From an uncultured Chloroflexia bacterium (GTDB taxonomy: Bacteria > Chloroflexota > Limnocylindria > Limnocylindrales > CSP1-4), in the NCBI GenBank assembly GCA_963739885.1, contig CAVUCC010000003.1, positions 9,580 through 73,579 of the forward strand: DNA of 64,000 bases, in the 5' to 3' direction. Below the pieces are notes generated by a model that saw only the letters and a program-made list of their open reading frames with translations, was not told where the DNA came from and made no database searches. The position numbers and the translations under genes are program-made. This document shows, piece after piece, positions 40,272 to 64,000 of the stretch; the first letter of the stretch is position 1; every line of letters begins with the position of its first letter.

Positions 40272-40272
40272 C

Positions 40273-41364: not shown

Positions 41365-41394
41365 GGGCGTCGCCGGCGGGAGGGGTCGACGCCC
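41365..41394 (-). terminator. Stem-loop immediately after the DUF192 gene (end of the Tad operon)
   Basis: An 8-bp stem, GGGCGTCG / CGACGCCC, with a 14-nt loop abuts the stop codon at 41395-41397. There is no clear U-tract. Confidence 0.3.
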
Positions 41395-42710: not shown

Positions 42711-42713
42711 GCG

Positions 42714-43724: not shown

Positions 43725-43745
43725 AAGCGGTCTCCCCAGTCCCTG

Positions 43746-45155: not shown

Positions 45156-45201
45156 CAGTCACACCCCTTCGGCCGCGAACGGCCATGCACACGCTGCCGC
45201 G

Positions 45202-46464: not shown

Positions 46465-46534
46465 TGGTCGGTCGTGGTGCCTCGAAGGATGTTGACGTGG
46501 TGCCGGCGGCGGGACGGGGTCCGGCCGGGATGGT

Positions 46535-46560
46535 GATGGGCCGGATGCCACCGGCCCATC
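46535..46560 (-). other. 10-bp perfect stem-loop in the cpaB / cpaE-like spacer
   Basis: GATGGGCCGG - ATGCCA - CCGGCCCATC. It lies in the 143-nt gap between two genes of the same operon. Confidence 0.35.
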
Positions 46561-46607
46561 GGGTCGCTGCGAGGCTCTCAAGGGTGGAGCCTGTTCGATA
46601 CGGGACG

Positions 46608-47600: not shown

Positions 47601-47848
47601 CGAAACCTCCCCAAGCCGTGTGACAGGTGGCAACACTCTAGCACCGGGATTCTCCCTCGTTACCGCCCAAAAGGGCTAGGACCGTTGGGAAGAAATGGGC
47701 AGAGACGCTGCACCTCGTAAGGTGTGCTGCAAGGCTGGGCGCGATCACCGGAGGCGAGCGTGTCGGCAGGCCGACATGATGGCGGGTCAGTGAAATGCGG
47801 AGCCCGCCAGCGCGTGCCGGCGGGCTGCCTTCGGTGGGTGGTGGCTGC

Positions 47849-48046
47849 TTACGGCGTGTACGACTGGAGCGTGGCACCAACGGTGCTGAGCTTGTCGCTG
47901 ACCTGGCTGCCCATGAAGATCAGGGCAATGATGGAAACGATCGCGATGAGGGCGAGGATGAGTGCGTATTCGGCCAGCCCCTGGCCGTCCTCGTCGTCCC
48001 GGCCGACAGCAGCCGACACAACGGTCATCACCTTCGTGAGAAGCAT
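47849..48046 (-). CDS. flp: Flp family type IVb pilin (paralogue 1)
   Basis: MLLTKVMTVVSAAVGRDDEDG/QGLAEYALILALIAIVSIIALIF... has the G-X4-EY processing motif and a hydrophobic helix. ATG 48046 is preceded by GGGAGGTG. Confidence 0.88.
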   Translation of the reverse strand: MLLTKVMTVVSAAVGRDDEDGQGLAEYALILALIAIVSIIALIFMGSQVSDKLSTVGATLQSYTP

Positions 48047-48207
48047 GGACTCGATCACCTCCCTTCTGAGCTGTCGCTCGATTCCGAGGGGGGATGCAGC
48101 CGCGATACCGCGCCCGCGAGCCCCCGGTGCGTCGTACGTTAGGCATCCTGTCCGGGAATACAACCGGACGAACGTCCTGAATGGTGAGCGGACTCAACAA
48201 CGAAGAA

Positions 48208-48235
48208 CGCCGGCCGCCTGGTCGGGCAGCCGGCG
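48208..48235 (-). terminator. Rho-independent terminator after flp paralogue 2
   Basis: An 11-bp stem (CGCCGGCCGCC / GGCAGCCGGCG, one G-U pair) with a 6-nt loop. On the transcribed strand it is followed by TTCTTCGTTGTTG. Confidence 0.6.
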
Positions 48236-48261
48236 CGCTCTGTGTTGAACGTGGAACCCGG

Positions 48262-48432
48262 TTAGACCGAGTTGCCGACGGTCGACAGGATGGTCGAGAC
48301 CTGGCCGCCCAGGAAGATGAGGGCGATGATCGCGACGATCGCGATCAGGGCGAGGATCAGCGCGTACTCCGCGAGACCCTGGCCTTCCTCGTCACGAGAG
48401 ACGAGCGAGATGAGTGCATTGAACAGCGTCAT
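48262..48432 (-). CDS. flp: Flp family type IVb pilin (paralogue 2)
   Basis: MTLFNALISLVSRDEEG/QGLAEYALILALIAIVAIIALIFLGGQVSTILSTVGNSV. ATG 48432 is preceded by GGAAGGAGG. Confidence 0.9.
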   Translation of the reverse strand: MTLFNALISLVSRDEEGQGLAEYALILALIAIVAIIALIFLGGQVSTILSTVGNSV

Positions 48433-48484
48433 GGATGGTTGCCTCCTTCCCTGAGAGCTCGCGGATCGTTCCGCGGCGAACGGG

Positions 48485-48513
48485 ACGATAGGTCGCTTTG
48501 TGTTGGGCGTCAA
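48485..48513 (-). promoter_or_regulatory. Sigma-70-like promoter for flp paralogue 2
   Basis: On the minus strand: TTGACG (48513-48508), a 17-nt spacer, then TATCGT (48490-48485), about 50 nt upstream of the ATG. Confidence 0.4.
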
Positions 48514-48560
48514 CCCCGACAAACGGGGTATTGGTGCACCTCGGCACCCATCCCGGGCAT

Positions 48561-48596
48561 CGCGAAGGGCCGCCGGCAAGCCGGCGGCCCTTCGCG
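48561..48596 (-). terminator. Strong stem-loop after flp paralogue 3
   Basis: A perfect 16-bp stem, CGCGAAGGGCCGCCGG / CCGGCGGCCCTTCGCG, with loop CAAG lies 17 nt past the flp3 stop. No U-tract. Confidence 0.55.
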
Positions 48597-48612
48597 TGTT
48601 GCCTGAGCCTGG

Positions 48613-48783
48613 TTAGACCGAGTTGCCCACGGTCGACAGGATGCTCGAGACCTGGCCGCCCAGGAAGATGAGGGCGATGATCGCGACGATCGCGATGAGG
48701 GCGAGGATCAGCGCGTACTCCGCGAGACCCTGGCCTTCCTCGTCCGTCCGGAACGAGGCGAGAAGCGAGGTAATGAGTGCCAT
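48613..48783 (-). CDS. flp: Flp family type IVb pilin (paralogue 3)
   Basis: MALITSLLASFRTDEEG/QGLAEYALILALIAIVAIIALIFLGGQVSSILSTVGNSV. ATG 48783 is preceded by GGGAGG. Confidence 0.9.
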   Translation of the reverse strand: MALITSLLASFRTDEEGQGLAEYALILALIAIVAIIALIFLGGQVSSILSTVGNSV

Positions 48784-48966
48784 TCGGTTCCTCCCGAGAG
48801 AGATAAGGGCCCGCCCTGAGGTCCAGGGCGACACCAAACGTAAGGGCTGCGTGAAGGCGCGCCAATGGGACGAAGGTCCTGTGCCGTGGGGCCCGTCCCG
48901 AGTGGTGCACGCTCACGTTCGGCCACGTCGACAAGTCGCGGTGCCAGGGTGCTCCGGGATGAGCGT

Positions 48967-49131
48967 CTACGGCCCGCCGTGGGCTGCATCGACGAGCACC
49001 CCGACTGCGTCGGCCAGCGTACCGCCGAAGAAGAAGATGATGACCAGCGCGAGGGCCACGGCCAGGCCGAGGATCAGGGTGGTCTCCAGGATGCCGGGGC
49101 CCGTCTCGCTGCCGGCCTGCTGACCCGTCAT
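48967..49131 (-). CDS. Unlisted 54-aa Flp-like (pseudo)pilin
   Basis: Hand translation gives MTGQQAGSETG/PGILETTLILGLAVALALVIIFFFGGTLADAVGVLVDAAHGGP. It has Gly then Glu at +5 as in Flp, but Thr at +6 instead of Tyr, followed by a hydrophobic helix. The ATG (49131-49129) overlaps the TGA (49130-49128) of the upstream kinase gene. The ORF is below the ORF-track size cut-off. Confidence 0.55.
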   Translation of the reverse strand: MTGQQAGSETGPGILETTLILGLAVALALVIIFFFGGTLADAVGVLVDAAHGGP

Positions 49132-50363
49132 CCCTCACCGGGTACCTCGCCCGCCGGCTCCGCCGCGGACACGGGCGCAGCCAAACGGCTGCCGGAATCC
49201 TCGTTCGTCGCGGCCGCCGCGAGCGGGACGACCAGCCGGAGCTCGCTGCCGCCGGCCAGGATCTCCACCTTGGCGGCGATGTAACCGGCACGCGCGACCA
49301 CGTCGCGCTGGGTTGCCGCGGGCAGGACGACTACCGCCGCGGCCTCGGCTGCCTCGGCCGCGGCCCGTCGCACGTCGTGCCGGTCCTGGATCATCTGGCG
49401 GATCGCGTCGGGCACGTCATCGGTGGGGACCTCGGGCAGCGGCTCGGCCTGCTCGGGAGGGATCGCCGCCCGCTCGGCGACCAGCCGTACCTCGAGCTCG
49501 TCCGTCCAGTCCAGGATCAGCGACATCCGCTCGGGCTCCAGGTGGAGGTAGGCGGTCAGGGCCTCATCCACGATCCGGAACACGGTGGACTCCAGCTCCA
49601 TCGGCAGCCGCCGGTCCTGGCCGAGCGACTCGAAGGTCACCGGGATGCCCTCGCGCCGTCCGCGATCGCGGGCGGAGCGTCGGAGCGTCGGCAGCAACCC
49701 GAGGTCGTCGAGGACCATGGGTCGGACGTCGAAGATGAAGCTCTTGGTGGCATCGAGCGTCTGCTGGACCATTGCGATCAGCTGCTCCAGCTCGTGCTGC
49801 GCCTGGTCGACATCGTCGTTCACCAGGCGCGCCACGATCTGCGCCTGGAGCACGATGTTGGTCAACGACTGGGCGGGTCCGTCGTGCATCGCGCGCGCGA
49901 TCTCCCGGCGGAGGTCCTCCTGGGCGTTGAGCACCACCCTGGACACGGGTGGCGGCGGGGCATCGTCCGCGGGCATGTCCTCGCCGGCGGCGGCCGGCGC
50001 GACCACCGCGACACCCGGCGGGCCAGCCTCGAGCGCCGTCACGATCTCTGCCAGGGCATCGCGGTGGCGGGCCAGCGCCTTGCGCTTGCTCTCGAGCAGG
50101 TCGACCTGGCTCTCCATCAGCACGGCTCGCCGGGTCAGGGCCACCAGCTGGTTGAGCGCGTCCGCCTGGGCGTCGCCGGGTTGGGCGATCACCTTGTTGG
50201 TCGCGCTCGCCCGCTTCTGCTCGTGGCGCGTGGCCTCGACCCTGGCCTGACCGATGAGCATGTCGATCTCGGTCAGCTCGCGCTCCAGGGTGGCGACGTC
50301 GGCCGAGAGCCGGGCGGCGAGCTCCGGGGCAGAGCCGGAGGGCAGTTCCTGGGAGGCGGTCAT
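49128..50363 (-). CDS. DegS-like cytoplasmic HisKA_3 histidine kinase homologue with degenerate ATP-binding domain
   Basis: It has an N-terminal coiled coil and no TM helix. The H-box AMHDGPAQSLTN and FDVRPMVLDDLGL are intact. The N-box position reads RIVDEALTAYLHL (no Asn). The G1 position reads VAERAAI instead of DDGxGF, and there is no G2 box. Confidence 0.7.
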   Translation of the reverse strand: MTASQELPSGSAPELAARLSADVATLERELTEIDMLIGQARVEATRHEQKRASATNKVIAQPGDAQADALNQLVALTRRAVLMESQVDLLESKRKALARHRDALAEIVTALEAGPPGVAVVAPAAAGEDMPADDAPPPPVSRVVLNAQEDLRREIARAMHDGPAQSLTNIVLQAQIVARLVNDDVDQAQHELEQLIAMVQQTLDATKSFIFDVRPMVLDDLGLLPTLRRSARDRGRREGIPVTFESLGQDRRLPMELESTVFRIVDEALTAYLHLEPERMSLILDWTDELEVRLVAERAAIPPEQAEPLPEVPTDDVPDAIRQMIQDRHDVRRAAAEAAEAAAVVVLPAATQRDVVARAGYIAAKVEILAGGSELRLVVPLAAAATNEDSGSRLAAPVSAAEPAGEVPGEG

Positions 50364-50394
50364 GGTGGGGCGGTGCCCGCTGTGGGACGGCCGC

Positions 50395-51138
50395 TCAATC
50401 CTCGGGCATCCGGATCCAGCCCTGTCGCATCGCGTAGACCACGGCCTGGGTCCGGTCGTTGACGGACAGCTTGCGCAGGATGGAGCTCATGTGGTTCTTG
50501 ACGGTCTGCTCCGAGATCGACAGCGCGTAGGCCACCTGCTTGTTGGTCATGCCCTGCGCGATGTTGTCCAGGATCTCCACCTCGCGCGGCGACAGCGGCG
50601 CGAAGATCGGCGCGGCCTCCTGGCCGTAGACGGCCAGCTCCCGGAACTCCTTGAGCACCCGCGAGGCGACGGCCGGCCGGCTGAACACCTTGTCGTTGAT
50701 GAGGTACTCGCCCGCGACCACCCGCCGGATGACCATGACCAGGTCCTCGGGGGCGATGTCCTTGAGGATGAACGCGGCCGCCCCGGCCTTGATGGACTCG
50801 AACAGGGCGTCCTCGTCCTCTTCGGTGGACAGCACGATGATCGCCGCCGACGGCAGCTCGCGCTTGACCCGCTGGGTGGTCTCGATACCGCCCGGCGTCG
50901 GCAGCGAGAGATCCATCAGGATCACGTCCGGGTTGGTCGCCAGGGAGGCGTCCATCGCACTCCGCGCATCGTCGGCCTCGGCGACGATCTCGAAATCCGG
51001 CTCCTGCTCGAGGATGTTGCGGATGCCCACGCGGAACAGGGCATGATGGTCGACGATCAGGATTTGCACCCGTTCGAACGACTGGTTCCGCCGATCCGAG
51101 CCGCCTCGCCGGCGCTCGGGTCCCTGGTACTCGGTCAT
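50395..51138 (-). CDS. NarL/LuxR (DegU-like) response regulator
   Basis: The receiver has ILIVDHH, VILMDLSLP and FILKD. The LuxR HTH is LSPREVEILDNIAQGMTNKQVAYALSISEQTVKNHMSSILRKL. The ATG overlaps the TGA of the upstream kinase (ATGA). Confidence 0.88.
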   Translation of the reverse strand: MTEYQGPERRRGGSDRRNQSFERVQILIVDHHALFRVGIRNILEQEPDFEIVAEADDARSAMDASLATNPDVILMDLSLPTPGGIETTQRVKRELPSAAIIVLSTEEDEDALFESIKAGAAAFILKDIAPEDLVMVIRRVVAGEYLINDKVFSRPAVASRVLKEFRELAVYGQEAAPIFAPLSPREVEILDNIAQGMTNKQVAYALSISEQTVKNHMSSILRKLSVNDRTQAVVYAMRQGWIRMPED

Positions 51139-52181
51139 CCGATCTCCTTTCGCGTCAACGGGATCGCCAGCCGGACCACCGTGCCCGCCTGGGGGCGGGA
51201 TCGCACTTCGAACACTGCGCCGATCAGCTCGGCGCGCTCACGCATGAACTGGAGGCCGAAGTTGCGGCGTCCGCGAGCGGCAACGGCACCGGTCTCGAAC
51301 CCTCGGCCATCATCATGAATCTCCAGGACCCATTGTCCATCGTCGATCATCGAGGCAACCGTCACGTTCGTGGCCGCCGCGTGCTTCCGGATATTCTGCA
51401 GGGCCTCCTGTAGCACGCGCAGCGCCACGGTCTGACTGGCCTCGGGGAGATCGCTCGTCGGGCCGCGGAGATCGGTGGTGACGTGCAGCTCGCCCACCGC
51501 AGACTGAGTGCTCACCGCGTCCTCGATCGCGCCGTCCAGACCGAGCTCTGCGAGGACGGGCGGTCGCAGCCGGCGGATGAAGCTCCGGACGTCGTCCAGC
51601 TCACGCCGTAGCAGCTCCCGGAGCATCCGGAGCTCGGTCCGCGCAAGCGGGTGGTCGGAATCGAAGACGCGATCGATGAACTCGACCTGGAAGATCGCGT
51701 TGGACAGCGCCTGGGCCGGGCCGTCGTGCACCTCCTTCGACATCCGGACCCGCTCGGCCTCCTGCGCTTCCACCAGCCGCATCTGTAGCTCGGCCGGCCC
51801 GTGGGGCAGCTCGATGTCGGTGATCAGCGAGCTGTCGCCGCGTTCCAGAAACAGCCACGTCGCCTCGAGGTTGCGGACGGCGTGGCCCAACCTGCCCAGC
51901 TCGGCCTCGCGGTGTCCGAGCGCGTCTCGCGCACGGTCGAGCTCGGCCCCGGCGCCCGGCGGCACCTTGTCGGCCCGCTCGAGCACCTCGAGACTGTCGC
52001 GCAGCTCCTCCAGGTGGGCGACCTCCTCGAGGTACGCCTGCCGGAACCGATCGCGAGCGGCGCGCACCGTGTTCGCGGCGTAGGCCAGCGCCTCCGTCGA
52101 CTCAGCGAGCAACTCGTCGTACCGGCCCCCGGTGGGCACGCCACTGGCATCCATCGGAGTGAGTGTATCGGCCGTGCTCAT
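51135..52181 (-). CDS. DegS-like cytoplasmic HisKA_3 sensor histidine kinase (complete catalytic domain)
   Basis: It has a coiled-coil N-terminus and no TM helix. The H-box is VHDGPAQALSNAIFQ, the N-box LQEALQNIRKHA, G1 EIHDDGRGF and G2 NFGLQFMRERA. ATG 52181 overlaps the TGA of the upstream GT-C gene. Confidence 0.85.
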   Translation of the reverse strand: MSTADTLTPMDASGVPTGGRYDELLAESTEALAYAANTVRAARDRFRQAYLEEVAHLEELRDSLEVLERADKVPPGAGAELDRARDALGHREAELGRLGHAVRNLEATWLFLERGDSSLITDIELPHGPAELQMRLVEAQEAERVRMSKEVHDGPAQALSNAIFQVEFIDRVFDSDHPLARTELRMLRELLRRELDDVRSFIRRLRPPVLAELGLDGAIEDAVSTQSAVGELHVTTDLRGPTSDLPEASQTVALRVLQEALQNIRKHAAATNVTVASMIDDGQWVLEIHDDGRGFETGAVAARGRRNFGLQFMRERAELIGAVFEVRSRPQAGTVVRLAIPLTRKEIG

Positions 52182-53884
52182 GGTGCCGCGACCGCCGCTG
52201 CACCGACGGGACGGGTCTCCGCTACCCCCGCGCAGGCGATCCGGAACACGCGGACGTCCGCGATCGCCGCGGCGTCGGCCGGGTCGGGCGGCACCGGCAG
52301 CAGGACCTCCTGGAAGCAGGTGGCGTCCGGATCGGGACCATCCAGGATCGCCGGCCATGCGCCGCGCTCCCGGCTGGCCACGATCAACCAGCGAGCCCCG
52401 AACCGGGTGGCCAGGTCCAGCACGTCCGCGGGTGTCTCGTCCGGCAGGCCCAGGGTTTGCACACGGGCGGCCTCGGCCAGCCAGATCGGGAAGTCGTGGA
52501 TGACCGGCGCGCTGCCGTCGAGGGGCGCACCCACCTCGGCCATCTCGCGCTCCAGCACCGCGTAGGTTCGCTGGGTGTCGCGAGCTCCAGCCCCGAAGCC
52601 GGGCAGCAGGGCCGCCGTGAACAGGGCGGATGCCGAAACCGCCAGCAGCGGCCCCAGCCAGGCCACCGGCCGCGTCCAGCCCAGCCGCCGGCCGACGGCC
52701 GCGATCAGCGCATCGAGCGCCCCGGCCGCCGAGACGAGCAGCAGAACGTGGACCGGAACGGCGGCATGGAGGAAGGTCCCCCAGGTGGTCGCCACCGGGA
52801 ACAGCAGGCTGGTGACCAGGAACGTGACCGCGCTCAGCAGCAGCAGCGGGCGAAGCGCCCGATCGCGCGCCTGCCAGGGCAGGGCCACCGCGCCGATCAG
52901 GGACACCGGCACGCCCAGGAACAGCAGCACGCTGAACAGGTTGTGGCCCAGGCCGTCGATCCGCATCTGGAGCAGGGTGCCGGCGCCAACCGAGAGGTAT
53001 CGAGCCAGGGTGGGCGGGTCGTTCCAGGCGAAGATGTCGTACCCGGTCACCGACAGCGCGTTGGACAGCGCCTGACCGGGCAGCGGGTTGCCGAACACGA
53101 GCCAGTCACGAACGGCCCAGGGCACGAACACGACCAGGCTGACGGCCGCCACCATGCCGATCAGCCGGCCACGGACCGCCTTCGTCTCACCTCGCCGTCG
53201 CCAGGCCAGCCAGGCCCAGACCAGGGCGAGCCAGGCCGCCTCGTTGCGGGTCAGCGCCGCCGCCCCCAGCAGGAGCCCGATCCCCAGCAATCGAGGGTCG
53301 GTGAGCCGGGCACCACGCGGGTCCCGGAGCACCCGCGTCATCAGCAGGCAGGCGCCAAGGGCCAGGGCGCCGAACAGCATGGTCGAATCGGGTAGCGCGG
53401 AATGGAGGACGAGCGGCAGGTAGACGGCAGCAGCCAGGCCCGTCCCGACCGCCAGCGTTCGGGCACGACCGGCCGGCAGCGCCCGCTCCGCGGCGAGGTC
53501 GGCGGCCAGCCGCCAGGCGAGGACGGCCACGATCGCGCCTGCGAGCACCGGCACGACCTGCGCCGCGCGCATCGCGGCCTCGAGCGAGATCGGCGACGGC
53601 CCGGCGACCAGCGCCATCGGGATCGCGGCCAGCAGCGACGGCAGCGGCAGCCACACCTCGAACGCCGGGCGCGGGAACACCAGCGGCGGCGTGCCGTAGC
53701 TCCACAGCGCGTCTGACACCAGGCCCCGGCCCTCGACCAGGTTGCGCGCCACCCCCACGTAGTAGGCCGTGTCTTCCGGCTTGGGGAAGGGGATCAGCGA
53801 TGCCGCCGCGATCCTGACGGCCGCCGCCACCGCGAAGATCACGGCAGCGGTCAGCCACGCCTCGTGACGGATCAAGGAGCGCAT
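52178..53884 (-). CDS. ArnT/PMT-like GT-C membrane glycosyltransferase (paralogue B)
   Basis: A 568-aa product with about 11 TM helices, an acidic first loop (FPKPEDTAYYVGVARNL) and a soluble C-terminal domain. ATG 53884 is in frame within ORF 52178..55483; the rest of that ORF is out-of-frame overlap with the next gene. Confidence 0.7.
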   Translation of the reverse strand: MRSLIRHEAWLTAAVIFAVAAAVRIAAASLIPFPKPEDTAYYVGVARNLVEGRGLVSDALWSYGTPPLVFPRPAFEVWLPLPSLLAAIPMALVAGPSPISLEAAMRAAQVVPVLAGAIVAVLAWRLAADLAAERALPAGRARTLAVGTGLAAAVYLPLVLHSALPDSTMLFGALALGACLLMTRVLRDPRGARLTDPRLLGIGLLLGAAALTRNEAAWLALVWAWLAWRRRGETKAVRGRLIGMVAAVSLVVFVPWAVRDWLVFGNPLPGQALSNALSVTGYDIFAWNDPPTLARYLSVGAGTLLQMRIDGLGHNLFSVLLFLGVPVSLIGAVALPWQARDRALRPLLLLSAVTFLVTSLLFPVATTWGTFLHAAVPVHVLLLVSAAGALDALIAAVGRRLGWTRPVAWLGPLLAVSASALFTAALLPGFGAGARDTQRTYAVLEREMAEVGAPLDGSAPVIHDFPIWLAEAARVQTLGLPDETPADVLDLATRFGARWLIVASRERGAWPAILDGPDPDATCFQEVLLPVPPDPADAAAIADVRVFRIACAGVAETRPVGAAAVAAP

Positions 53885-55464
53885 CGCGGATCGTCGGACG
53901 AGCGGCACATCGGATACACGGCCACGTCCGCGTGCTGGAGGATGGGCGGCCCGATCCACGGCGGCCGCTCCCCGTTGGTCAGGATCTCGGTCACGGCGGG
54001 GACGGTGTCGCCCGGCTCGAGCACGAGCCACCGGGTGTCGTACGCGTCGCCGACCTCCTTGACCGTGATCAGCGGGTCGTTGACCAGCACAACGCCGGGG
54101 TGGCCGGTCCAGTAGCGGTAGCCGGCCGCGTCGATGGACATCACCCGGTCCGTGACGGGCGCTCCGGCCAGGTCCAGCGCGATCCCCACCGAGCGCATCC
54201 GCGCGGCGTTGGCCTCCCAGCCGCCGTGGACGATGACGGCGCCCAGGGCCGCGGCCAGCACGCCGAACCCGACCGCCCCCGCGACGAACACCCGGGCCGC
54301 CTGCGCGAAGTCCCAGCTCGGGCGGCGTCTGGCCGCCCAGCCAGCCGCGAGCACCACGCCCTCGAGCGCGAGGACGTATCCGTGGGGCGCCAGCGCCACC
54401 GCCGAGTGGATGAACGTGCCGCCCGGGACGTGGACCGCGGAGACCAGCGCGCTGAACGCGAACAGCAGGACGGCGTAGCCGAGATAGGGGCCGAACATCG
54501 CGTCGCGCCGCCGGCTCCACGCCCCGATGACCAGGAACGGGACCAGGATCAGGGCACACACCAGGACGCTGAAGATGAACGCCGCGGACACGAGACCGCC
54601 GATCCGCGTCAGCAGCAGCGGGATGAGACCCATGCCCAGCAGGTGATCGAGGCTGGCCGGCGTGGTGATGCTGTTCCACTCGCCGATGTTGCGGATGAAC
54701 AGCACCTTGCCCGAGGCCGTCGACGGCGACAGCGAGCCGAACGTCGCCAGCTGACGCGGGTACCACGGCGCCATGACCACCAGAAACAGGGCCACCGACC
54801 CGAAGGCCGCGGTCCACGGGATGTGGCGTCCGCGCACGCGGTCCCAGAGGAAGGCGAGGCCGAGTACGCCCAGCACCAGCAGACCATCGTTGCGCGATAG
54901 CGTGGCCACGCCCGCCAGCAGGCCCGCGAGCGCGAAGTCGCGTCCGGCACGGGGTCGTCCGCTGAGCGCGCGCCCCGCCAGCCACAGCGAACCGGCCACC
55001 AGCGGCTGGTACAGGGAGAAGTTGTCCGGCTGGGCCATGAACACGAACGACATGGCCGGCAGCGCGGTCAGGATCGCCGCCCCCACCGAGACCCACTCGG
55101 GGGCTCCGGCGTCGCGCCCGATCGCCCATGCCAGCGGCGCCGCGAACGCGCCGGCGAAGGCGAACGGCAGTGCCGAGGCCATCGCGGTCGGGCCAAGCAG
55201 CCAGATGAACGGCACCTGGACCAGCGATGCGAGCGGCATCCAGTGGGCGTTGGACGGGATCGGCAGGACCGGATTGGCGGGGATCACCCCACCCACCTCG
55301 GCGAAGATCCAGACCACGTCCACGTTGAAGCCGTGTCCCGCGGCCAGCTGCCGCGCAACGTCCACGTAATAGAAGGAATCGGGGTAGGCGGGGTTGGGGA
55401 ACACGGCGGCGACGAGCAGTCGGGCCACCAGGGCGAACAGGTAGAGCGCGACCGGGATGCGCAC
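53872..55464 (-). CDS. ArnT/PMT-like GT-C membrane glycosyltransferase (paralogue A)
   Basis: A 530-aa polytopic protein with first loop NPAYPDSFYYVDVARQLAAGHGF and a C-terminal soluble domain. GTG start. Confidence 0.7.
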   Translation of the reverse strand: MRIPVALYLFALVARLLVAAVFPNPAYPDSFYYVDVARQLAAGHGFNVDVVWIFAEVGGVIPANPVLPIPSNAHWMPLASLVQVPFIWLLGPTAMASALPFAFAGAFAAPLAWAIGRDAGAPEWVSVGAAILTALPAMSFVFMAQPDNFSLYQPLVAGSLWLAGRALSGRPRAGRDFALAGLLAGVATLSRNDGLLVLGVLGLAFLWDRVRGRHIPWTAAFGSVALFLVVMAPWYPRQLATFGSLSPSTASGKVLFIRNIGEWNSITTPASLDHLLGMGLIPLLLTRIGGLVSAAFIFSVLVCALILVPFLVIGAWSRRRDAMFGPYLGYAVLLFAFSALVSAVHVPGGTFIHSAVALAPHGYVLALEGVVLAAGWAARRRPSWDFAQAARVFVAGAVGFGVLAAALGAVIVHGGWEANAARMRSVGIALDLAGAPVTDRVMSIDAAGYRYWTGHPGVVLVNDPLITVKEVGDAYDTRWLVLEPGDTVPAVTEILTNGERPPWIGPPILQHADVAVYPMCRSSDDPRCAP

Positions 55465-55580
55465 GGCTGGTGCAGACTAGCACCGGGGTTCGCCCCGACA
55501 GAGGGGTACGAATCGGCTACCGTGGACGTCACCCGGTGGGTCGCTGGGCCCCTGTCCCAGCGCGTATCGTCTCCCGCGTG

Positions 55581-56480
55581 ATGTCAGTCGGCTCGCGCCC
55601 GAGCTCGTTCGTGCTGTCGCCGTCGGGGCGCAGGATGGTCTGGATCGTCCTGGGCGCCGGGTCGGTCATCGGCCTCCTGATCGGCCTGGGGGCGCTTCGG
55701 CTCCACCTCACGACCGACCCGCTGGCCGACGTCCACGCGTACTACGACGCGGGCGCGAGGCTCAACGCCGGACTCCCCCTGTACGACCAGGCCGCGACGA
55801 CCAACGACCCCAGATTTTACCGGTACCCGCCCCTGCTCGCGATCCTGTTCCGGCCATTGGCCCTGTTGTCGTTCGAGGCAGCTGCCGCCGTTTGGATGGC
55901 CGTCCTGGGGGTGGCGACCCTGTTGACCGTGTGGCGTCTCAGCCGTGGCCTGCCGCTCCTGCTGGCCGCCGGGATGCTGGCCATGCCGATCCTGTGGACG
56001 CTCGCGATCGGGCAGGCACAGGTCCTCGTCACGCTGCTCCTCGCGTATGGCACGCCGTTGGGTGTCGCGCTCGCCGGCCATCTCAAGCTCACGCCGTGGC
56101 TGGTGGCGGTGTACTGGGTGGGACGCCGTGACCTGGTGACCGTACGGCGGCTGCTGGTGTGGGTTGTGATCATCGGACTCGCCCAGGTCGCCCTGGCGCC
56201 GCAGGCGACCATCGACTACCTGGCCTTCCCGTCACTGACCCAGGTGGGTGAGGTCGTCAACCTCTCGCCCTACGCCGTGTCGCCGCTCCTGTGGGTCCTC
56301 GTCGTGACGCTCGGGACCCTGCTCGCCCTGCGTCTGGCGCCGACGCGCTGGGGCTGGGCCGCCGCCGTTGCGCTCGGGGTGGGTGCCACGCCGCGCCTGC
56401 TGGGGTACCAGCTGTCGTCGCTCCTGGCCGCATTCGGCGGGCCTGACCATCGTCCCAACCGGCGTGAGGGAGGTTCGTGA
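55581..56480 (+). CDS. DUF2029 / GT87-like polyprenol-phosphate-sugar-dependent glycosyltransferase (paralogue 1)
   Basis: A polytopic protein with first-loop motif DPLADVHAYYDAGARLNAGLPLYD...FYRYPP, then GQAQVLVTLLL and LKLTPW. Start ATG 55581 (GTG 55578 is possible). Confidence 0.7.
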   Translation: MSVGSRPSSFVLSPSGRRMVWIVLGAGSVIGLLIGLGALRLHLTTDPLADVHAYYDAGARLNAGLPLYDQAATTNDPRFYRYPPLLAILFRPLALLSFEAAAAVWMAVLGVATLLTVWRLSRGLPLLLAAGMLAMPILWTLAIGQAQVLVTLLLAYGTPLGVALAGHLKLTPWLVAVYWVGRRDLVTVRRLLVWVVIIGLAQVALAPQATIDYLAFPSLTQVGEVVNLSPYAVSPLLWVLVVTLGTLLALRLAPTRWGWAAAVALGVGATPRLLGYQLSSLLAAFGGPDHRPNRREGGS

Positions 56481-57657
56481 GGCAGCGCGGCCCCGACCTC
56501 GGCCCGTGGCTCGTCGCCGGTGCCGTGGCGTGGGTGGGCCTCGCATGGCTGGGCTGGTCCCTATGGCAGGGCACGCCGCATCGGGCCGGCTTCGATCTCA
56601 CGCTCCTGCTCGATGCCGCTCGCCGAGTGCTGGGCGGCCGAAGCCCCTACGACCCGGCGATGCTCTCCGGCACCGCTCCCCAGGCGACCGAGCTGTTCTA
56701 CTCGTATCCCCCGCCCGTGGCCCAGGCGCTCACCCTACTGGCCTGGATGCCAGACGGCGTGGCCCTGATCGTCTGGATCGCCGGCGCGACGGCAGGACTG
56801 GGCGTGATCGCCGGCCTGATCGCGCGTGCTCTCGACGCTGACGGGAGGGGCGTGGCGGTCCGCGTCGTCGCCGCGGCCCCGCTCGTCCTGCCTTTCGGGA
56901 TCGCGCTCCTGTTCGGAAACCTGGACGCGTGGTTCCCGCTCGCCTTCGGTGCGCTGCTGCTGGCGGTGTTGCCGGGGGCGTCGAGGCGGACGCAGCTGGC
57001 GGCCGGCGCAGCCATTGCCATCGCAACGATCGCCAAGCTCCACCCGGCGCCGCTCCTCCTGTGGGTGGCCGTCAGGGCCTTCCGCGATGGCGGCGGGGCC
57101 CAGGCGCGCGTCCTCGCGGCGGCGGTCGTCACCGGGCTGGGCGTCGTTGCGGTGAGCCTCGTCGTCGGCGGGCTCGGACCATGGCGGACTACGTCGGGGT
57201 CGTTCGGGCCGGCGCCGGCACGGGGCTCGTTGATTCGCGGAACGCCGGGCCGGTGTCGCTGCTGGGCCAGGCGACCGGTCTCGGCGGCGGCGCGCTGCAG
57301 ATGGCCCAGGCCATCGTGTCGCTCGCCGTGGTGGCCGCGACGCTGCTCGCCGCCTGGCGAGTCCGCGAGCCGGTCACGAGCCTCGCCATCGCGAGCGCCA
57401 TGTCACTGATGACGCTGCCCGTCACCTGGTACCACTACCCGGTGGCGCTGGTCCCGGTGGCGATCGCGCTCGTCATTCGCTATCCGGCAACGAGGTCGCG
57501 AGTCGTGCTGGCGACCGTCGTGGTGGATGCGGCAATCGCGTACCTGCCGCTGCTCTGGCTCGCTGTCGCCGTGCTGCTGGTGGCCTGCCTGGCGCCAGAC
57601 GGTACCCGGACCCATGGCACTCCAGTCCCGGTTACGGGACGCACCACCGGGTTCTAG
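56477..57657 (+). pseudogene. DUF2029 / GT87-like glycosyltransferase (paralogue 2), frameshifted at about 57184
   Basis: ORF 56477.. gives GFDLTLLLDAARRVLGGRSPYD...LFYSYPPP, AKLHPA and ...VVGGLGPW. The sequence continues as ADYVGVVRAGAGTGLVDSRNAG...LPVTWYHYPVAL in ORF 56929..57657. One G appears to be missing after TGG (57182-57184). Confidence 0.75.
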
Positions 57658-57666
57658 ACTGCCTCG

Positions 57667-58471
57667 ATGCCCTACAGCAGCCTCACCATCGTCCTGCCGG
57701 CGTTCAACGAGGAGGCCCGTCTCGGGCCGGCCCTCGATGAGCTGTTCGGCTACCTCCATCGCCGGGGCGATCATGCCCGCGATGGGCGGCCCGGGAGCGC
57801 ACGAGCTGCCCGCCAACATCGACGTGCTGGTGGTCAACGACGGCAGCACGGACGGTACGGCCGCGCTGGTCCAGGCCCGGCCCGAGCTCGCCGCGGGCGA
57901 GCTCGCGTTGCTGAGCGTTCCCCACGGTGGCAAGGGTGCGGCCGTCCAGGCCGGGATGCTGGCCGCCCGCGGCGATCTGGTGGTCTTCGCTGACGCGGAC
58001 ATGGCGACGCCGCCTGATGAGCTCGCGCCGCTCGTGCAGGTCCTGGCTTCGGCCGATGCGGTCTACGGCAGCCGGATCCAGCCCGACGGCAGCGACATGC
58101 GCAAGTCCCAGCCGCCCTGGCGGCGGTCGCTGGGCCGCGCCTTCCACGCGCTCGCCTCGCTGTGGGTGGTGGGACCGGTGCAGGACACCCAGTGCGGGTT
58201 CAAGGGCTTCCGGCGACATGTCGCCCAGGACGTGTTCGCGCGGCAGCGGATCACCAGCATCGTGTTCGACGTGGAGGTCATCTTCCTCGTGCGCCGGCGC
58301 GGCTACAGCTGGACGGTGGTGCCCATCCAGTGGGCGGATCGTCGCGGCTCGCGCATGCACCCGGGCTTCCTGCTGGCTCTTCGGGTCGCCTGGGACCTGT
58401 TCCGGATCCCGTTCCTGCATCGTGACGTGAAACGGGTCGCGAAGGAGACCGGCGACCAGGCGACGGCCTGA
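57667..58471 (+). pseudogene. GT2 polyprenyl(dolichyl)-phosphate hexose synthase-type glycosyltransferase, frameshifted at about 57764-57767
   Basis: ATG 57667 gives MPYSSLTIVLPAFNEEARLGPALDELFGYLHRR. The rest (IDVLVVNDGSTDGT, VVFADADMATPPDE, GSRI, QCGFKGF) is in ORF 57527..58471. The likely site is the GGGG run at 57764-57767. Confidence 0.8.
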
Positions 58472-58484
58472 TCGGGGGCGGGAG

Positions 58485-59583
58485 ATGAGGCTCACGGACG
58501 CCCTCTCCAGACTCCTGCCGCTGTTCGCGATCGGCGTGCTCGTGCTCACGGTCGGGGCCACGCTCGCGGTGGCTGGCGACACCCACGGCTATGACTTCCG
58601 GGCGTACTACGACGCCGCCGCCCGGGTGCTGCACGGGCAGTCCGCCTACGACCAGGCGTACGACCTTGCGGGGGCCGGCGGCCTGTTCTTCTACCCGCCG
58701 ACCTTCATCCCGCTGGTGCTCCCATTCGCCCTGCTGCCGGTGGACGTAGCGACCTGGGCATGGACGGGGCTCATGCTGGCGGCGTTCGCGCTCGCGGTCG
58801 CCGCGATGCCGATCGCGTGGCGCACCCGCTGGTGGATCGTGCTGCTGGCCGGTTTGTCGTGGCCGTTCGTCTACAACATCAAGCTCGGGCAGGTGGGTCC
58901 GTTGCTGCTGCTGCTGTTCGCCTCGGCCTGGCGGTGGCGGGACCGACCGGTGGTGTTCGGCGTCGCGAGCGGGCTCGGGGCAGCGATCAAGGTCCAGCCG
59001 GGCCTCCTGCTGGTGTGGGCCCTGGTGCGACGCGAGTGGGGTGCCGTGCTTGCCGGAGCCGTGACGCTGGTGGGCCTGGCCGGCGTGGCCTTGCTCCTGA
59101 CCGGTCCGGTGGCGTGGCCCGACTTCGCAGGCCTGCTGACCCGCGTGTCGCGACCCGATCGCGACCCCGCAGAACGTGACGCCCGGCGCGATCGCCTGGC
59201 AGCTCGGCGCGTCGCGGACGATGGCGGAAGCGATCCAGGTCGCGACCATGGTGACGGTGGCCGCCGTCTTCATCGTGGCCACGATCTGGCTGCCGGTGGA
59301 GGCGTCGCTCATGGTGGCGATCATCGCGACGCAGCTCGCGTCGCCGATCCTCTGGGACCACTACGCGATCGTGCTGCTGCTGCCGGTGGCCTGGCTGCTG
59401 GACCGCGGCCACGTGTGGGCCGTTCTGATCCCGCTGGTGACCCCGGTGTTCCTGGTCGGCACCACGCCACCGGTCGTCTACCCCATCGTGTTCGCGGCGA
59501 CGCTGCTGGCCGTGGTGGTCGAGGGCTACCGGGATCGTGTGCGGTCGCTTCCGGTTTCTCGAGGCGTGCCGGCCCGTGCGTGA
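58485..59583 (+). pseudogene. DUF2029 / GT87-like glycosyltransferase (paralogue 3), frameshifted at about 59151
   Basis: GYDFRAYYDAAARVLHGQSAYD...LFFYPP, LGQVGPLLLLL, IKVQPG and ...LLTRVS are in ORF 58485... The sequence continues as DPIATPQNVTPGAIAWQLG...ILWDHYAIVLLLP in ORF 59176..59583. There is one extra base at 59151. Confidence 0.75.
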
Positions 59584-60456
59584 GGTCAACTGGCTCCGGC
59601 TCGGACGGGACGCGCTGGTCCTTCTCGGGATCCTCGCGGCGGTCGCGATGTGGTGGTTCTACACATTCGGAGGGCTGGGGCAGCCGGTCGACGTCCGCTA
59701 CTACTGGGCGGCGGATCCCGGCCACCTCTATCTGCACCCGGAGCTGGCGGAGAAGAACGGGTACAACTATACGCCCGCCTTCGAGTACGTGGTCGGCTGG
59801 GGAAGGTTGCTCCCGTTCGACGTGTTCGTGGCGATCTGGCGGGCGATCCTGCTTGGCGGCCGTCGTCTACCTCGCCGGGCCGCTGACACTGCCGGTGCTC
59901 CTGACGGTCCCGGTCGCGTCGGAGATCAACGCCGGCAACATCCAGATCCTGCTCGCACTGGCGATCGTGCTGGGGTTCCGGTGGGCCGGGCGCGTGGGCG
60001 TTCGTGCTGCTGACCAAGGTGACCCCGGGAGTCGGGTTGCTGTGGTTTCTGGTGCGCCGTGAGTGGCGTCCGCTGCTGATCGCGGGTGGGGTGACCGGCG
60101 TCCTGTTGCTGGCGTCGCTCGTGACCCATGGCAGCCAGTGGCCCGGCTACCTCGACCTCATCACCAGCGGCGCGTCCCCGGCCGTGGCGCCCTACTACCT
60201 GCCGCTGTGGGTCCGGTTGCCGCCGGCGATCGCGCTGATCGTGATCGGCGCCCGGCTCGGCTGGCGCTGGACCGTGGTTGCCGGCTCCACGCTTGCGCTG
60301 CCGGTGTTCTACATCATCAGCTGGTCGATGCTGGTGGGCATGCTGCCGTTCGTGCGGGAAGCCGGCGGCCGTTGGCTCGCTGCGCACGGGTGGTCGCTGG
60401 AGCGCGCCGATCGGGGTCGCCGTGCGATGGCGGAGCCGAGGGTCTCAGCGTCGTGA
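59576..60456 (+). pseudogene. DUF2029 / GT87-like glycosyltransferase (paralogue 4), two frameshifts (about 59855 and about 59989)
   Basis: The protein can be read through three frames. Frame 1 gives VREVNWL...VDVRYYWAADPGHLY...FDVFVAIWRAILL. Frame 2 gives AAVVYLAGPLTLPVLLTVPVASEINAGNIQILLALAIVLGFRWA. Frame 3 gives GAWAFVLLTKVTPGVGLLWFLV... to the stop at 60456. The extra bases lie in GG (59855-59856) and GGG (59988-59990). GTG 59576 overlaps the upstream stop (ATG 59537 is an alternative start). Confidence 0.65.
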
Positions 60457-61364
60457 CAACTGCGATAGACGAGCCCGCATCAGCGAAGAGTTGGCCGGCG
60501 CCCTGGCTCGTCGCCCTCGCCGCGATCGGGGCCACGCTGCTGCTGGTGGTCGCCATCAACCGCTGGGCCACACCGTCTGACGAGCACGCCTACTGGCTGG
60601 CCGCTCAGCACCTGGCTGCGGGACAGCCACTCTATGACGCAACCGCCGAACCCGGCACCCCATACGCTTATTGGTATCCCCCACCCATTGCGCAGGCGCT
60701 TGCGCCGCTCACGCCGTTCATCTCGTCCGCGGCGTTCACCGCCGCGTGGACGGTGATGCTCCTCGCCTGTCTGGTGTTCCTCGGCAATCGGCGCGTGCTG
60801 GTCTCGCTGGCGCTCGTCGCCTACCTGCCCGTCGCCGTTGAGCTGTGGTTCCGGAACGTTCACCTGTTGCTTGCCGTGCTGATAGTCCTCGCCCTTCGCC
60901 GGTCGCCGCTGTTCTGGGTTCCGGCAGCAGCCATCAAGGTGACCCCGGTCCTCGGCATCCCTTTCCTGTTGGCGGCCCGCCGGTATCGCGAGGCCGCCCT
61001 GACCGTCGTCGTGGGTGGGGTGGTGCTCATGATCAGCCTTGCCCTCTCGCCCGATGTCTGGCGCCAGTTCTTGGACGTGGTCGTCAGCAAGGGAGGCACC
61101 AGTGGGTCGAGCCTGGTCCCTGTCCCGTTCCCGGTCCGCTTCGGGCTTGCGCTCGTGTTGGCCGTGGTGGCCGGCCGCCTGGGGGATCGCCGCGGCGAGG
61201 TGCTCCTCGTCGCTGCGCTCACGATCGGGAACCCCACGCTGTGGATGACGGCGCTGAGCCTGCTTGTCGCCGTCGTGCCCTTGTGGCGATCAGCCCCCAG
61301 CGACTATGCGGCAGGGGCCTCAGCAAAGAGGCCCACACGCTTCGCGATCCCCCTCCGCCGATAG
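60453..61364 (+). CDS. DUF2029 / GT87-like glycosyltransferase (paralogue 5)
   Basis: SDEHAYWLAAQHLAAGQPLYD...YAYWYPPP and IKVTPV. GTG 60453 overlaps the upstream TGA (GTGA). Confidence 0.7.
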   Translation: MTTAIDEPASAKSWPAPWLVALAAIGATLLLVVAINRWATPSDEHAYWLAAQHLAAGQPLYDATAEPGTPYAYWYPPPIAQALAPLTPFISSAAFTAAWTVMLLACLVFLGNRRVLVSLALVAYLPVAVELWFRNVHLLLAVLIVLALRRSPLFWVPAAAIKVTPVLGIPFLLAARRYREAALTVVVGGVVLMISLALSPDVWRQFLDVVVSKGGTSGSSLVPVPFPVRFGLALVLAVVAGRLGDRRGEVLLVAALTIGNPTLWMTALSLLVAVVPLWRSAPSDYAAGASAKRPTRFAIPLRR

Positions 61365-63424
61365 AGCACGAACGCGGCCCCATAGCACACGGCAACGACC
61401 AGCAGCAGCGCGCGGAAGCCGGTTAGCAGGGCGACATACTCGAGCGCCCCGCCGAGCATCGCGCCCAACAGGTTCGAGGCGAACGCCATGTCCGCCTCCG
61501 CGGTGTCACGGAACGAGTAGGTGAACACGAGGTTGGCGAAGAACACGGGCGCGAACGCGATCGCGCTGGCGAGGACGTAGCGCAGCTCGGGGGGATCGAT
61601 CAGCAGACTGTCGGCCGGGACGAGGTAGGCCACGGCGATCGATGCGAACAAGGCCACATAGAGCGGTACTGGACTCCGCGTGCTGATGCGGGCGTTCAGC
61701 AGGATGGCCAGCAGGACGCTCGCCAGGATGGCGAAGAACGCCATCGCGTTGACGATCCAGGTCGTTCCGAACAGCAGGCTGAAGGACACGAGGCTCTTGG
61801 TTTCGAGCAGCAGGAAGGCGACGCCGAGCGCGAAGAAATGTGGCTTGAAGCGCCCGATCGGCGTGTGGGTGACGCGTGTCGCGCCGAGGACGCTGGCCAG
61901 GGCCAGCAGCAGGAGGAAGCCGAGCGCCACCAGGTAGTAGGGGGCGATCTCCGGGACGCGCAGGTACAGGAACGGCCAGTCGTCGGTTGCCAGCTGCGGC
62001 GCGGGCTGCCCGACGCGCGGGACCGGATCCGAGCCATCGCCGGGCGGTGGAGCGCCGCCGAGCGCGTCGACCGCGGGGCCCGCTGCCAGGACCGCTTCCG
62101 CCGGTCCGACGAGGCGTACGAGGCGGTGCGGGCCGAACACCGAACCCAGCATCGAGTCGAGCTTCGCGACGATCCAGGGCTCGCGATACAGGTTGTACAT
62201 CACGAACATGCCGTCGGGTGCGAGGTGGTCCCTGGCGGCCTGGAACGCTTCGGTGGTGAACAGGAACGACTCCAGCCGGACGTTGGACATCGAGCTCGCG
62301 AGCGTCAGCGAGTCGGTCAGGCCGAGGACGATCAGGTCGTACCGGTCGTTGGTCGCGTTCAGGAACGCGCGTCCGTCGTCGACGTGCACGGTGACGCGCG
62401 GGTCCGCGTAGACGCCCTCGGGATGGAAGTCCCGGCCGATCTCGGCCAGCAAGGGATCGATCTCGACCGCATCCACGTGTTGGGCGCCGCGCGCCAGGGC
62501 CAGGGCCACGTCCGATCCCGAGCCTGCCCCGATGATCAGCACGCGATCGTACGTTCGATCGGGAAACCATCGGTAGGCCTGGCTGTGCATCGGGCTCTGC
62601 GCGGCGGCCGTGGAGTCGAGCATCGTCTGGTGCGGGATGCCGTCCACGTACATCGCGTAGGGCGGCCCCGCAGCCGTGTTGCTGATCGAGGTCCTCGCTC
62701 CATCAGTCGTCCAGGCCGTGATGCGGTAGTACGGCGACCACATGTCCTCGCTCGCCCGGCCGACCAGGGCGCTCGAGACGATGACCAGCAGCATCGCCGC
62801 GCCACCCAGCGCCGACCAGGGTGTGGGGCCGGTGCCCAGCGCGAGCAGCAGGATCAGCCCGCCGAGGAACGCGAACCAGACCGTCGGGTCGGTGCCCAGG
62901 TACGACATGACCGCGAAGCTCGCGATCCCTGCCATCGATCCGGCGATGTCGACGGCGTAGGCGCGAAGCGGCGGCATCGCTTTGAGCAGCGGTCCGAGCG
63001 GCAGCGCGAGCGAAGCCGTGAGCGCCGTGACGAGCACGATCAGGAGCGGCAGGACGATGAAGTTCACGTCGGCGCTGTGCGATGCCTGGAGCCCGAAGAA
63101 CACCTCGCTGGTGCCTCGGACCTGGACGTTGAGCTGTGCCCCGTACACCAGAAGCACCGTGGGCAGCAGGAGCAGGGGGAACGGCGACACCAGAAGGCGC
63201 GGTGCGCGTCGGCCGAGAAGGATTCCGAGCCCGATGCCCAGGAAGCTGGCCATCAGCAGGAAGTTCGTGAAGAAGCCGACGTACTTGACGTTCGCCGGGA
63301 CCCAGCGGATCAGCAGCAGCTCCGCGAACAGCACGCTTGCGCTAGTCAGGAACAGGCGCACGGCCGGCCGCGCCAGGACGCCAACCGGAGGGATCGGGCG
63401 GCGGGGATCCGGAACGCGGAGCAT
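61304..63424 (-). CDS. Membrane-embedded spermidine synthase-fold (SAM-dependent transferase-like) protein
   Basis: The N-terminus has about 7 TM helices. The central domain (RVLIIGAGSGSDVALALARGAQHVDAVEIDPLL, VHVDDGRAFL, YDLIVLGLTDS) is of PABS/spermidine synthase type. A C-terminal TM bundle follows. The 3' end overlaps the convergent GT87 paralogue 5 by 61 nt. Confidence 0.7.
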   Translation of the reverse strand: MLRVPDPRRPIPPVGVLARPAVRLFLTSASVLFAELLLIRWVPANVKYVGFFTNFLLMASFLGIGLGILLGRRAPRLLVSPFPLLLLPTVLLVYGAQLNVQVRGTSEVFFGLQASHSADVNFIVLPLLIVLVTALTASLALPLGPLLKAMPPLRAYAVDIAGSMAGIASFAVMSYLGTDPTVWFAFLGGLILLLALGTGPTPWSALGGAAMLLVIVSSALVGRASEDMWSPYYRITAWTTDGARTSISNTAAGPPYAMYVDGIPHQTMLDSTAAAQSPMHSQAYRWFPDRTYDRVLIIGAGSGSDVALALARGAQHVDAVEIDPLLAEIGRDFHPEGVYADPRVTVHVDDGRAFLNATNDRYDLIVLGLTDSLTLASSMSNVRLESFLFTTEAFQAARDHLAPDGMFVMYNLYREPWIVAKLDSMLGSVFGPHRLVRLVGPAEAVLAAGPAVDALGGAPPPGDGSDPVPRVGQPAPQLATDDWPFLYLRVPEIAPYYLVALGFLLLLALASVLGATRVTHTPIGRFKPHFFALGVAFLLLETKSLVSFSLLFGTTWIVNAMAFFAILASVLLAILLNARISTRSPVPLYVALFASIAVAYLVPADSLLIDPPELRYVLASAIAFAPVFFANLVFTYSFRDTAEADMAFASNLLGAMLGGALEYVALLTGFRALLLVVAVCYGAAFVLYRRRGIAKRVGLFAEAPAA

Positions 63425-63458
63425 GAGCGGAAGGGTAGCGGCGGGCCGAGGTTAGGCA

Positions 63459-64000
63459 ATGGCCCATGTGGCGGTCATCCAGACATGGATCGCCCGGGTC
63501 TTCCGCCGTACCTCCGCTACCCTGCGTCTCGTGCTCCCTCCGCCGCAATTCTCGTCTCGGCGCCGCGAGTTGACGATCGGCATCTGCGTCGCCTTGGCGG
63601 CGTTCCTCGTCTACTGGCTGTCGAACCGGCTGTACGACGCGGGCCGCGGGGACCTGTTCTATCTCGCGGACTCGTTCCTCCACGGGCACACCTGGATCGA
63701 CGTCGTGCTGGGCCCCAACGACGTGATCTACTTCGGCGGCCACGCGTACGTCCCGTTCGCGCCGTTCCCCGCCATCGCGCTGATGCCCCTGGTCGCCCTG
63801 ATCGGCCCGGTGACCGCCGACCAGTGGGAGACCGGGATCAACGCCGGGTTGGCCGCGTTCGTCGTGTTCCTGGCGTGGTGGGCGTCGGGCCGGATCGGCG
63901 TCACCCGGTGGCGGGATCGCCTCGCGCTCGCGGTGCTGCTCGGCTTCTCGACCCAGGTGTGGTGGGTGACCACCCGTGGCGGCGTGTGGCACACGGGCCA
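63459..64000 (+). CDS. GT-C type membrane glycosyltransferase, N-terminal 180 codons (runs off the right edge)
   Basis: Hand translation from ATG 63459 gives MAHVAVIQ...LTIGICVALAAFLVYWLSNRLYDAGRGDLFYLADSFLHGHTWID...PFAPFPAIALMPLV...STQVWWVTTRGGVWHTG. There is no stop before 64000, so it is absent from the ORF track. The acidic first loop and TM pattern resemble the other GT-C genes. Confidence 0.55.
   Translation, partial: MAHVAVIQTWIARVFRRTSATLRLVLPPPQFSSRRRELTIGICVALAAFLVYWLSNRLYDAGRGDLFYLADSFLHGHTWIDVVLGPNDVIYFGGHAYVPFAPFPAIALMPLVALIGPVTADQWETGINAGLAAFVVFLAWWASGRIGVTRWRDRLALAVLLGFSTQVWWVTTRGGVWHTG

Follow-up and report, generated by a model that had tools for sequence, protein, structure and literature searches.

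What does a bacterium make with eight membrane glycosyltransferase genes packed into 12 kb? The question is raised by a locus at the right-hand end of a 64-kb stretch of DNA (hereafter the window; G+C content 70%) from an uncultured soil Chloroflexota bacterium, probably of the class Limnocylindria, whose genes we called by GC3 frame analysis together with six-state segmentation. A preliminary description, made from the letters alone, had seen there an array of GT-C glycosyltransferase genes, and the core of that observation holds: a 12-kb stretch contains eight genes of the GT-C type, beside one glycosyltransferase family 2 (GT2) gene of the polyprenyl-phosphate class. The minus strand carries two genes for ArnT-like proteins, B and A, followed by a kinase, a regulator and a second kinase; after a gap of 116 bp, the plus strand carries the divergent series G1-G2-GT2-G3-G4-G5, in which all genes but GT2 encode GT87 paralogues. 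S, on the minus strand, comes after G5, and R, again on the plus strand, is next and is truncated by the window edge. We consider it likely, with a probability of roughly 70%, that this is an envelope-glycan locus using the polyprenyl-phosphate-hexose route and acting outside the cytoplasmic membrane, and that the frameshifts which interrupt several of its genes are most likely assembly errors.

Five of the eight transferases can be placed by profile searches. Scored against the Pfam GT87 model (PF09594, gathering cut-off 25 bits), the intact genes G1 (55581–56480, plus strand, 299 aa) and G5 (60453–61364, plus strand, 303 aa) reach 46.9 and 46.0 bits, respectively. G2 (56477–57657, 393 aa when intact), G3 (58485–59583, 365 aa when intact) and the short G4 (59576–60456, 292 aa when intact), all on the plus strand, were scored on their intact copies in a near-identical contig (L013), which gave 72.2, 103.7 and 29.7 bits; the N-terminal parts of the frameshifted G2 and G3 in the window already match the model. 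In G1 to G5 and two further paralogues, the first-loop Asp, the Tyr of a YxYPP motif and the Lys of a K(L/V)xP motif are invariant, and six of these seven also have a Tyr four residues downstream of the Asp. The essential residues of PimE are D58, Y62 and K195 (PMC12041525), a pattern that the Asp, Tyr and Lys of the paralogues appear to fit, the mapping being by motif spacing and not by direct alignment. Orthology to PimE or Rv2181 does not follow, the best score against NCBIfam PRK13375 being the 42.6 bits of G3 (cut-off 413 bits). The paralogues, the extra GT87 genes included, are old, with identities of at most ~33% over 200 aa or more. The two further paralogues are short GT87-like membrane proteins encoded beyond the right edge of the window, in L013 and its extension L018 (10724–12447; X287 and X258, of 287 and 258 aa), and are 48–52% identical to each other. 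Both keep the invariant Asp, Tyr and Lys of the paralogues; neither gave a Pfam match at E≤5 or any NCBIfam match.

The same Pfam scan, at E≤5, returned nothing for A, B and R, and their GT-C nature was therefore addressed through structure. The AlphaFold2 model of B (53872–55464, minus strand, 530 aa; predicted local distance difference test (pLDDT) score 80, predicted TM-score (pTM) 0.84) finds the ArnT structures 5ezm and 5f15 as its best Foldseek matches (E=2e-7, TM-score 0.51), and the remaining strong matches, namely STT3, AglB, PglB, AftA and ALG12, are all GT-C enzymes. B has no NCBIfam match, yet is strongly conserved in the lineage: more than 2000 homologues are 68–87% identical to it, many of them bearing PF13231 and labeled as ArnT family or GT39. 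This Pfam domain is precomputed on many orthologues 70–74% identical to B, and is flagged weak for the orthologue in the relative L015. In the first loop of B, D29 of the motif AYPDSFYY is at least 90% conserved. A (52178–53884, minus strand, 568 aa, ~10 transmembrane helices by hydropathy) aligns with B in BLASTP at 32% identity over 381 aa with an E-value of 9e-22, which marks the two as paralogues; it carries the first-loop motif PEDTAYY and matches the LA_3751 putative glycosyltransferase family of NCBIfam weakly. Taken together, A and B are predicted to be ArnT-like proteins of the GT-C fold, A by way of its paralogy to B.

R (63459–64000, plus strand) is represented in the window by the N-terminal 180 aa of a protein of ~400–430 aa with no Pfam model; the full-length copy in L013 comprises 432 aa. 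Its model (pLDDT 86, pTM 0.87) retrieves GT-C folds in all of the top 28 Foldseek matches, including the GT-C-like GPI-transamidase subunit PIGU. Profile comparison with hhalign relates the R family to the B family at 90.6% probability (E=1.3e-6), suggesting remote homology between the two. Whether R could be a divergent GT87 protein was considered and rejected, the corresponding comparison with the GT87 paralogues yielding 1.4% probability. D62 and D68 in the first loop of R are invariant. R has no NCBIfam match, an R-family profile run against PDB sequences retrieved nothing useful, and the same was true of phmmer searches of PDB sequences with A, B, R and G3. The family is large, counting 2873 clusters (50% identity, E≤0.001). 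A scan of 48 members left 42 without a hit to any recognized glycosyltransferase family in Pfam; some members match YfhO or PMT_2. Homologues of B and R bear generic or hypothetical names only, and the R family may be regarded as an unclassified GT-C branch that family databases could add. The profile searches, structure predictions and first-loop Asp proposed as checks in the preliminary description support the following of its family and fold assignments: GT87 for G1 to G5 (for G2 to G4 in their intact form), Glycos_transf_2 for the GT2 protein, Spermine_synth for S, and GT-C folds for B and R.

Where would the sugar come from? The GT2 gene (57667–58471, plus strand; 267 aa when intact) encodes a protein scoring 79.9 bits against Pfam Glycos_transf_2, with ArnC (4e-12), DPMS (9e-7) and GtrB (8e-5) as its closest relatives in the PDB. 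By these relatives, it falls into the DPMS/GtrB/ArnC/ALG5 class of polyprenyl-phosphate glycosyltransferases. Hydropathy reveals no transmembrane segment in its 267 aa, and hence it is without the C-terminal helices of GtrB and ArnC; if soluble, it would be similar to the Ppm1 of actinobacteria. Orthologues are 75–87% identical across the lineage. The protein stays below the equivalog cut-offs for ArnC (48.9 vs 529 bits) and for dolichyl-phosphate hexose transferase (48.1 vs 375 bits), and the label that IMG attaches to its orthologues, by automatic annotation, is dolichyl-phosphate beta-glucosyltransferase. The mannose precedent invoked earlier is consequently not secure, and glucose and mannose are both conceivable as the hexose. 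Nor can it be known from a 64-kb window that the array is fed by a single synthase, as had been proposed; a close relative has another GT2 gene, together with a GtrA-like gene.

From the families, folds, conserved catalytic residues, gene order and conservation observed, we infer a donor, an acceptor, an order of steps and a product as follows. At the cytoplasmic face, the soluble GT2 enzyme would attach a hexose (glucose or mannose) to polyprenyl phosphate, with a nucleotide sugar as its source. The lipid-linked sugar would then be flipped across the membrane by a protein encoded outside the window. On the outer face, the eight GT-C enzymes (ArnT-like A, B and R; GT87-type G1 to G5) would each, by means of a first-loop Asp, pass the sugar on to an acceptor bound to the membrane or the wall. 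With respect to organization, a conserved core, A-B divergent from GT87-GT2-G3-R, is joined by strain-variable GT87 additions.

Several observations weigh against an envelope-glycan locus of this kind. The window holds neither a flippase of the GtrA or ArnEF type nor an acceptor-forming enzyme, and no enzyme of the array reaches any NCBIfam equivalog cut-off. The composition of the array differs between relatives that are 88% identical, so that its genes may serve several acceptors rather than one pathway. Finally, the frameshifts are unevenly spread: of the eight identified in the window, five are concentrated in 3 kb at the array, a clustering that uniform sequencing error would not predict.

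This last point bears directly on whether the locus is functional. The gene content given in the preliminary description stands, but it overlooked that G2, GT2, G3 and G4 are broken by five single-base insertions or deletions (indels). The spans 56477–57657, 57667–58471, 58485–59583 and 59576–60456 are not multiples of three, and GC3 frame analysis and translation place one frame switch each in G2, GT2 and G3 and two in G4. L013, which is 98.85% identical to positions 54148–64000 of the window, differs from it by single-base indels solely at 57186 (a deletion, in G2), 57789 (an insertion, in GT2), 59151 (an insertion, in G3) and 59857 and 59990 (insertions, in G4), exactly at the frame switches, and encodes all four proteins intact. 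If the five frameshifts were real, then G2, G3, G4 and the sole donor synthase would be pseudogenes, in a locus that this strain is losing or switching off. Such decay would account for five indels between 57186 and 59990 against only three frameshifts identified in the other ~60 kb, and would be in keeping with the frequent loss or variation of surface-glycan loci among strains, gene content differing in the relatives L015 and L019. We nevertheless judge it unlikely. Not only is every gene intact in a contig 98.85% identical, but codon changes relative to that contig, read in the intact frame, are mostly synonymous (25 synonymous and 2 non-synonymous in G4), with no new stops and no deletions. 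Frameshifts elsewhere in the window affect glyA, an essential gene, and cpaF, in its Walker-A region. The serine hydroxymethyltransferase gene glyA (17390–18836, plus strand) changes frame near position 18000; in cpaF (43746–45158, minus strand), the Walker-A region (GGTGSGKTT) at 44132–44482 is out of frame with the rest of the gene, implying two compensating frameshifts. Related Chloroflexota metagenome-assembled genomes (MAGs) likewise have loci frameshifted at sites of their own, in S and GT2 genes (L002 11707–11709 and L012 10860–10862), as if indel errors were common in this assembly set. The five indels sit in short G/C runs rather than in long phase-variation tracts. Programmed frameshifting and phase variation were considered as well and rejected, given the lack of long repeat tracts and the intact genes of the near-identical strain. 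For these reasons, the five frameshifts in the array are probably assembly errors, and an envelope-glycan locus with intact genes remains our preferred reading.

How much of the array is conserved? Its closest relatives are uncultured Chloroflexota, with many matches named Candidatus Limnocylindrales; identical copies of A, B, G1, G5 and S in the public collection all stem from one contig of 203,483 bp. Among the relatives, L015 shares 88.6% DNA identity with the window, and the B proteins of L016 and L017 are 72–74% identical to that encoded here. In all three, the order reads Tad pilus, flp, kinase-regulator-kinase, A, B and, divergently, GT87-GT2-G3-R, with the A orthologues coming after B; L012 shares the core order in part. 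The core A-B/GT87-GT2-G3-R is kept together across relatives whose B proteins are 72–93% identical. G3 has orthologues in L012, L015, L016 and L017, and G4 is a single frame in L012. In contrast to this core order, the full array is not kept: the number of GT87 genes ranges from two to five, and L015 is without S and G4. The array is a smaller conserved core that has been expanded in a strain-variable way, and it may not be one fixed stepwise pathway; to that extent the stepwise assembly originally envisaged was overstated. Since GT87 extras come and go between close relatives, they may rather provide strain-variable decoration of a surface glycan.

Downstream of R, relatives carry genes for LtaS/EptA-like sulfatase-family, FemAB-like and GT4 proteins. 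Beyond the window, L013 and its extension L018 continue with R, the two short GT87-like genes, a FemAB-like gene, a gene for a 552-aa GT87 protein and a UDP-Glc/GDP-Man dehydrogenase-family gene, the latter ~9 kb past the right edge; the statement that the region has no nucleotide-sugar pathway therefore went too far. L013 also keeps a 145-aa remnant of a 465-aa gene that comes after R in L015. In L019 (5006–8746), a relative with an R protein of 92% identity, a GtrA-like gene has beside it a GT2 gene that seems to be interrupted by the reverse transcriptase of a group II intron (RVT_1 and GIIM).

Such variability feeds the main rival explanation, which we regard as possible, if improbable: a glycosylation island, in which the acceptor differs from one GT-C enzyme to another (A and B might act on proteins, for instance, and the GT87 enzymes on a lipid or a wall polymer) and nothing but the lipid-linked sugar donor is shared. 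The age of the paralogues, the shifting membership among relatives and the sulfatase-family, FemAB-like and GT4 genes beside R would all be in line with it, and known GT-C enzymes do act on proteins, lipids and polymers alike. Co-expression, on the other hand, is suggested by the two divergent operons and by overlaps between neighboring genes of 13 nt (A/B), 4 nt (G1/G2), 8 nt (G3/G4) and 4 nt (G4/G5), which, like the ends of the open reading frames, were correctly described from the outset; and the joint retention of the core also speaks against a loose collection of enzymes.

Is there a precedent for an envelope-glycan locus built in this way? The closest likeness is to mannosylation of phosphatidylinositol mannosides, lipomannan and lipoarabinomannan (PIM/LM/LAM) in mycobacteria and corynebacteria. 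There, Ppm1 makes polyprenyl-phosphate-mannose, which is used by PimE, Rv2181/MptC and other GT-C enzymes. Both systems combine a soluble GT2 protein with GT87-type GT-C enzymes, and the conserved first-loop Asp, the Tyr four residues on and the Lys recall PimE. The differences are considerable: a score an order of magnitude below the PimE cut-off, most paralogues shorter here (292–303 aa), a window without PimA/PimB, inositol or arabinan genes, another phylum, and a sugar that may be glucose. Moreover, mycobacterial PIM/LM/LAM genes are scattered, whereas the genes here are tightly arrayed. A second likeness is to the three-component systems GtrA/GtrB/GtrV, CsbB/GtcA/YfhO and ArnC/ArnEF/ArnT, in that a GT2 gene of the ArnC/GtrB/DPMS class lies beside genes for ArnT-like GT-C transferases, and the YfhO and PMT_2 matches in the R family point the same way. 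Yet the window has no GtrA or ArnEF flippase gene, the GT2 protein is without C-terminal transmembrane helices, and there are eight transferases in place of one. As for the flippase, a tblastn search of the window with the GtrA_DPMS_TM protein from L019 as query gave no match, and the gene junctions leave no space for another gene. Actinobacterial protein O-mannosylation (Ppm1 plus Pmt, GT39) is a third candidate, as B orthologues carry PF13231 (PMT_2) and the NCBI name GT39; B itself, however, has no such Pfam match, its best structural match is ArnT and not PMT, and it has no MIR domain. Our literature searches (GT87 with Chloroflexi, DUF2029, Limnocylindria envelope) turned up no characterized counterpart and no published or annotated pathway for this gene set, in agreement with the early impression that it matches no known one. 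The principle, a lipid-linked-sugar route, is familiar; what is new is the pathway, together with the lineage and the R family.

What might the product be? We tentatively propose, at clearly less than even odds, that the core (A, B, GT87, GT2, G3 and R) makes an undescribed lipoglycan or wall glycopolymer, a core component of the Limnocylindria envelope. A single polyprenyl-phosphate hexose would supply its assembly, which would take place entirely outside the membrane, with the participation of the Pfam-less GT-C family R and under co-transcribed two-component control, and strain-specific GT87 expansions would diversify the surface. Limnocylindria are abundant in soil and freshwater and have not been cultured, and we found no literature describing their envelope. 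Because B, GT2 and R are 62–87% identical across hundreds of sequence clusters, the locus is a good candidate for encoding one of the major envelope glycoconjugate pathways of this class. The mechanism being well known, the gain lies in the pathway and the families, which are new, and not in the principle.

The two-component control just mentioned derives from the genes to the left of A. Position 52178, where the array had been taken to begin, cuts through an operon: the ATG of a histidine kinase gene (HisKA_3 and HATPase_c in Pfam; 51135–52181, minus strand; 348 aa from the ATG at 52181, as in L015) overlaps the TGA stop of A as ATGA. This gene is in turn overlapped by 4 nt by that of a NarL/LuxR-type response regulator (50395–51138, minus strand; Pfam Response_reg and GerE), an exact copy of which is labeled NarL/FixJ family in the public collection. 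A second histidine kinase gene (49128–50363, minus strand; HisKA_3, E=7e-13) is the last of the minus-strand operon, a position unchanged in L015, L016 and L017. The overlap of kinase start and A stop makes B-A-kinase-regulator, possibly with the second kinase, one translationally coupled unit, and suggests that B and A are co-transcribed with the kinase-regulator-kinase set (49128–52181, minus strand) and that the locus is under envelope-responsive control; envelope stress may be the signal. The region between B and G1 (55465–55580, 116 bp) is presumably a shared promoter region, a role assigned from layout; a consensus promoter scan found nothing there, and promoter and terminator scans were uninformative overall.

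Next to the second kinase lies a Tad/Flp pilus locus (41778–48840, minus strand) with genes for TadC, TadB, CpaF, a receiver-domain TadZ-like protein and RcpC/CpaB, and three flp pilin genes in tandem. It is also found beside the glycosyltransferase locus in L015, L016 and L017. The GT-C enzyme TfpW arabinosylates Pseudomonas pilins, and one could imagine that the enzymes described here glycosylate the Flp pilins of the neighboring pilus, given three flp genes adjoining the kinase-regulator-kinase set and A-B in conserved synteny. We consider this highly improbable. The genomes compared are all close relatives, and their synteny may be inherited; eight or more transferases far exceed what pilin modification would need; and L012 and L019 have glycosyltransferase genes with no Tad locus in the stretches examined.

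Does S belong to the system? S (61304–63424, minus strand) is a 706-aa membrane protein in which ~6 N-terminal and 7 C-terminal hydrophobic helices flank a soluble, spermidine-synthase-like Rossmann domain, as the preliminary description had recognized. It scores 49.2 bits against Pfam Spermine_synth (cut-off 22.9) and 43.2 bits against the NCBIfam model for fused MFS/spermidine synthases (cut-off 40), and aligns with Thermus thermophilus SpeE (1uir) at E=1.7e-11. Key aminopropyltransferase residues are the acidic one in GGG(D/E)G and, in D-x-T-D-P, the first Asp. In an alignment with 1uir and 3bwb, S has IIGAGSGS and VLGLTDS in place of the enzymes' GGG(E/D)G and IID(L/T)TDP. We found no characterized counterpart of a membrane-fused spermidine synthase in the literature. 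Homologues in Planctomycetota and Acidobacteriota have unrelated neighbors, and a conserved partner of S in other phyla was sought and not found. With S also missing from L015, the accessory role first ascribed to it is not supported, and its membership in the glycosylation system is variable and doubtful.

Farther to the left (39420–41394, minus strand), a class II fructose-bisphosphate aldolase gene lies beside a gene for a SorC-type sugar-binding regulator, a pair that belongs to ordinary carbohydrate metabolism.

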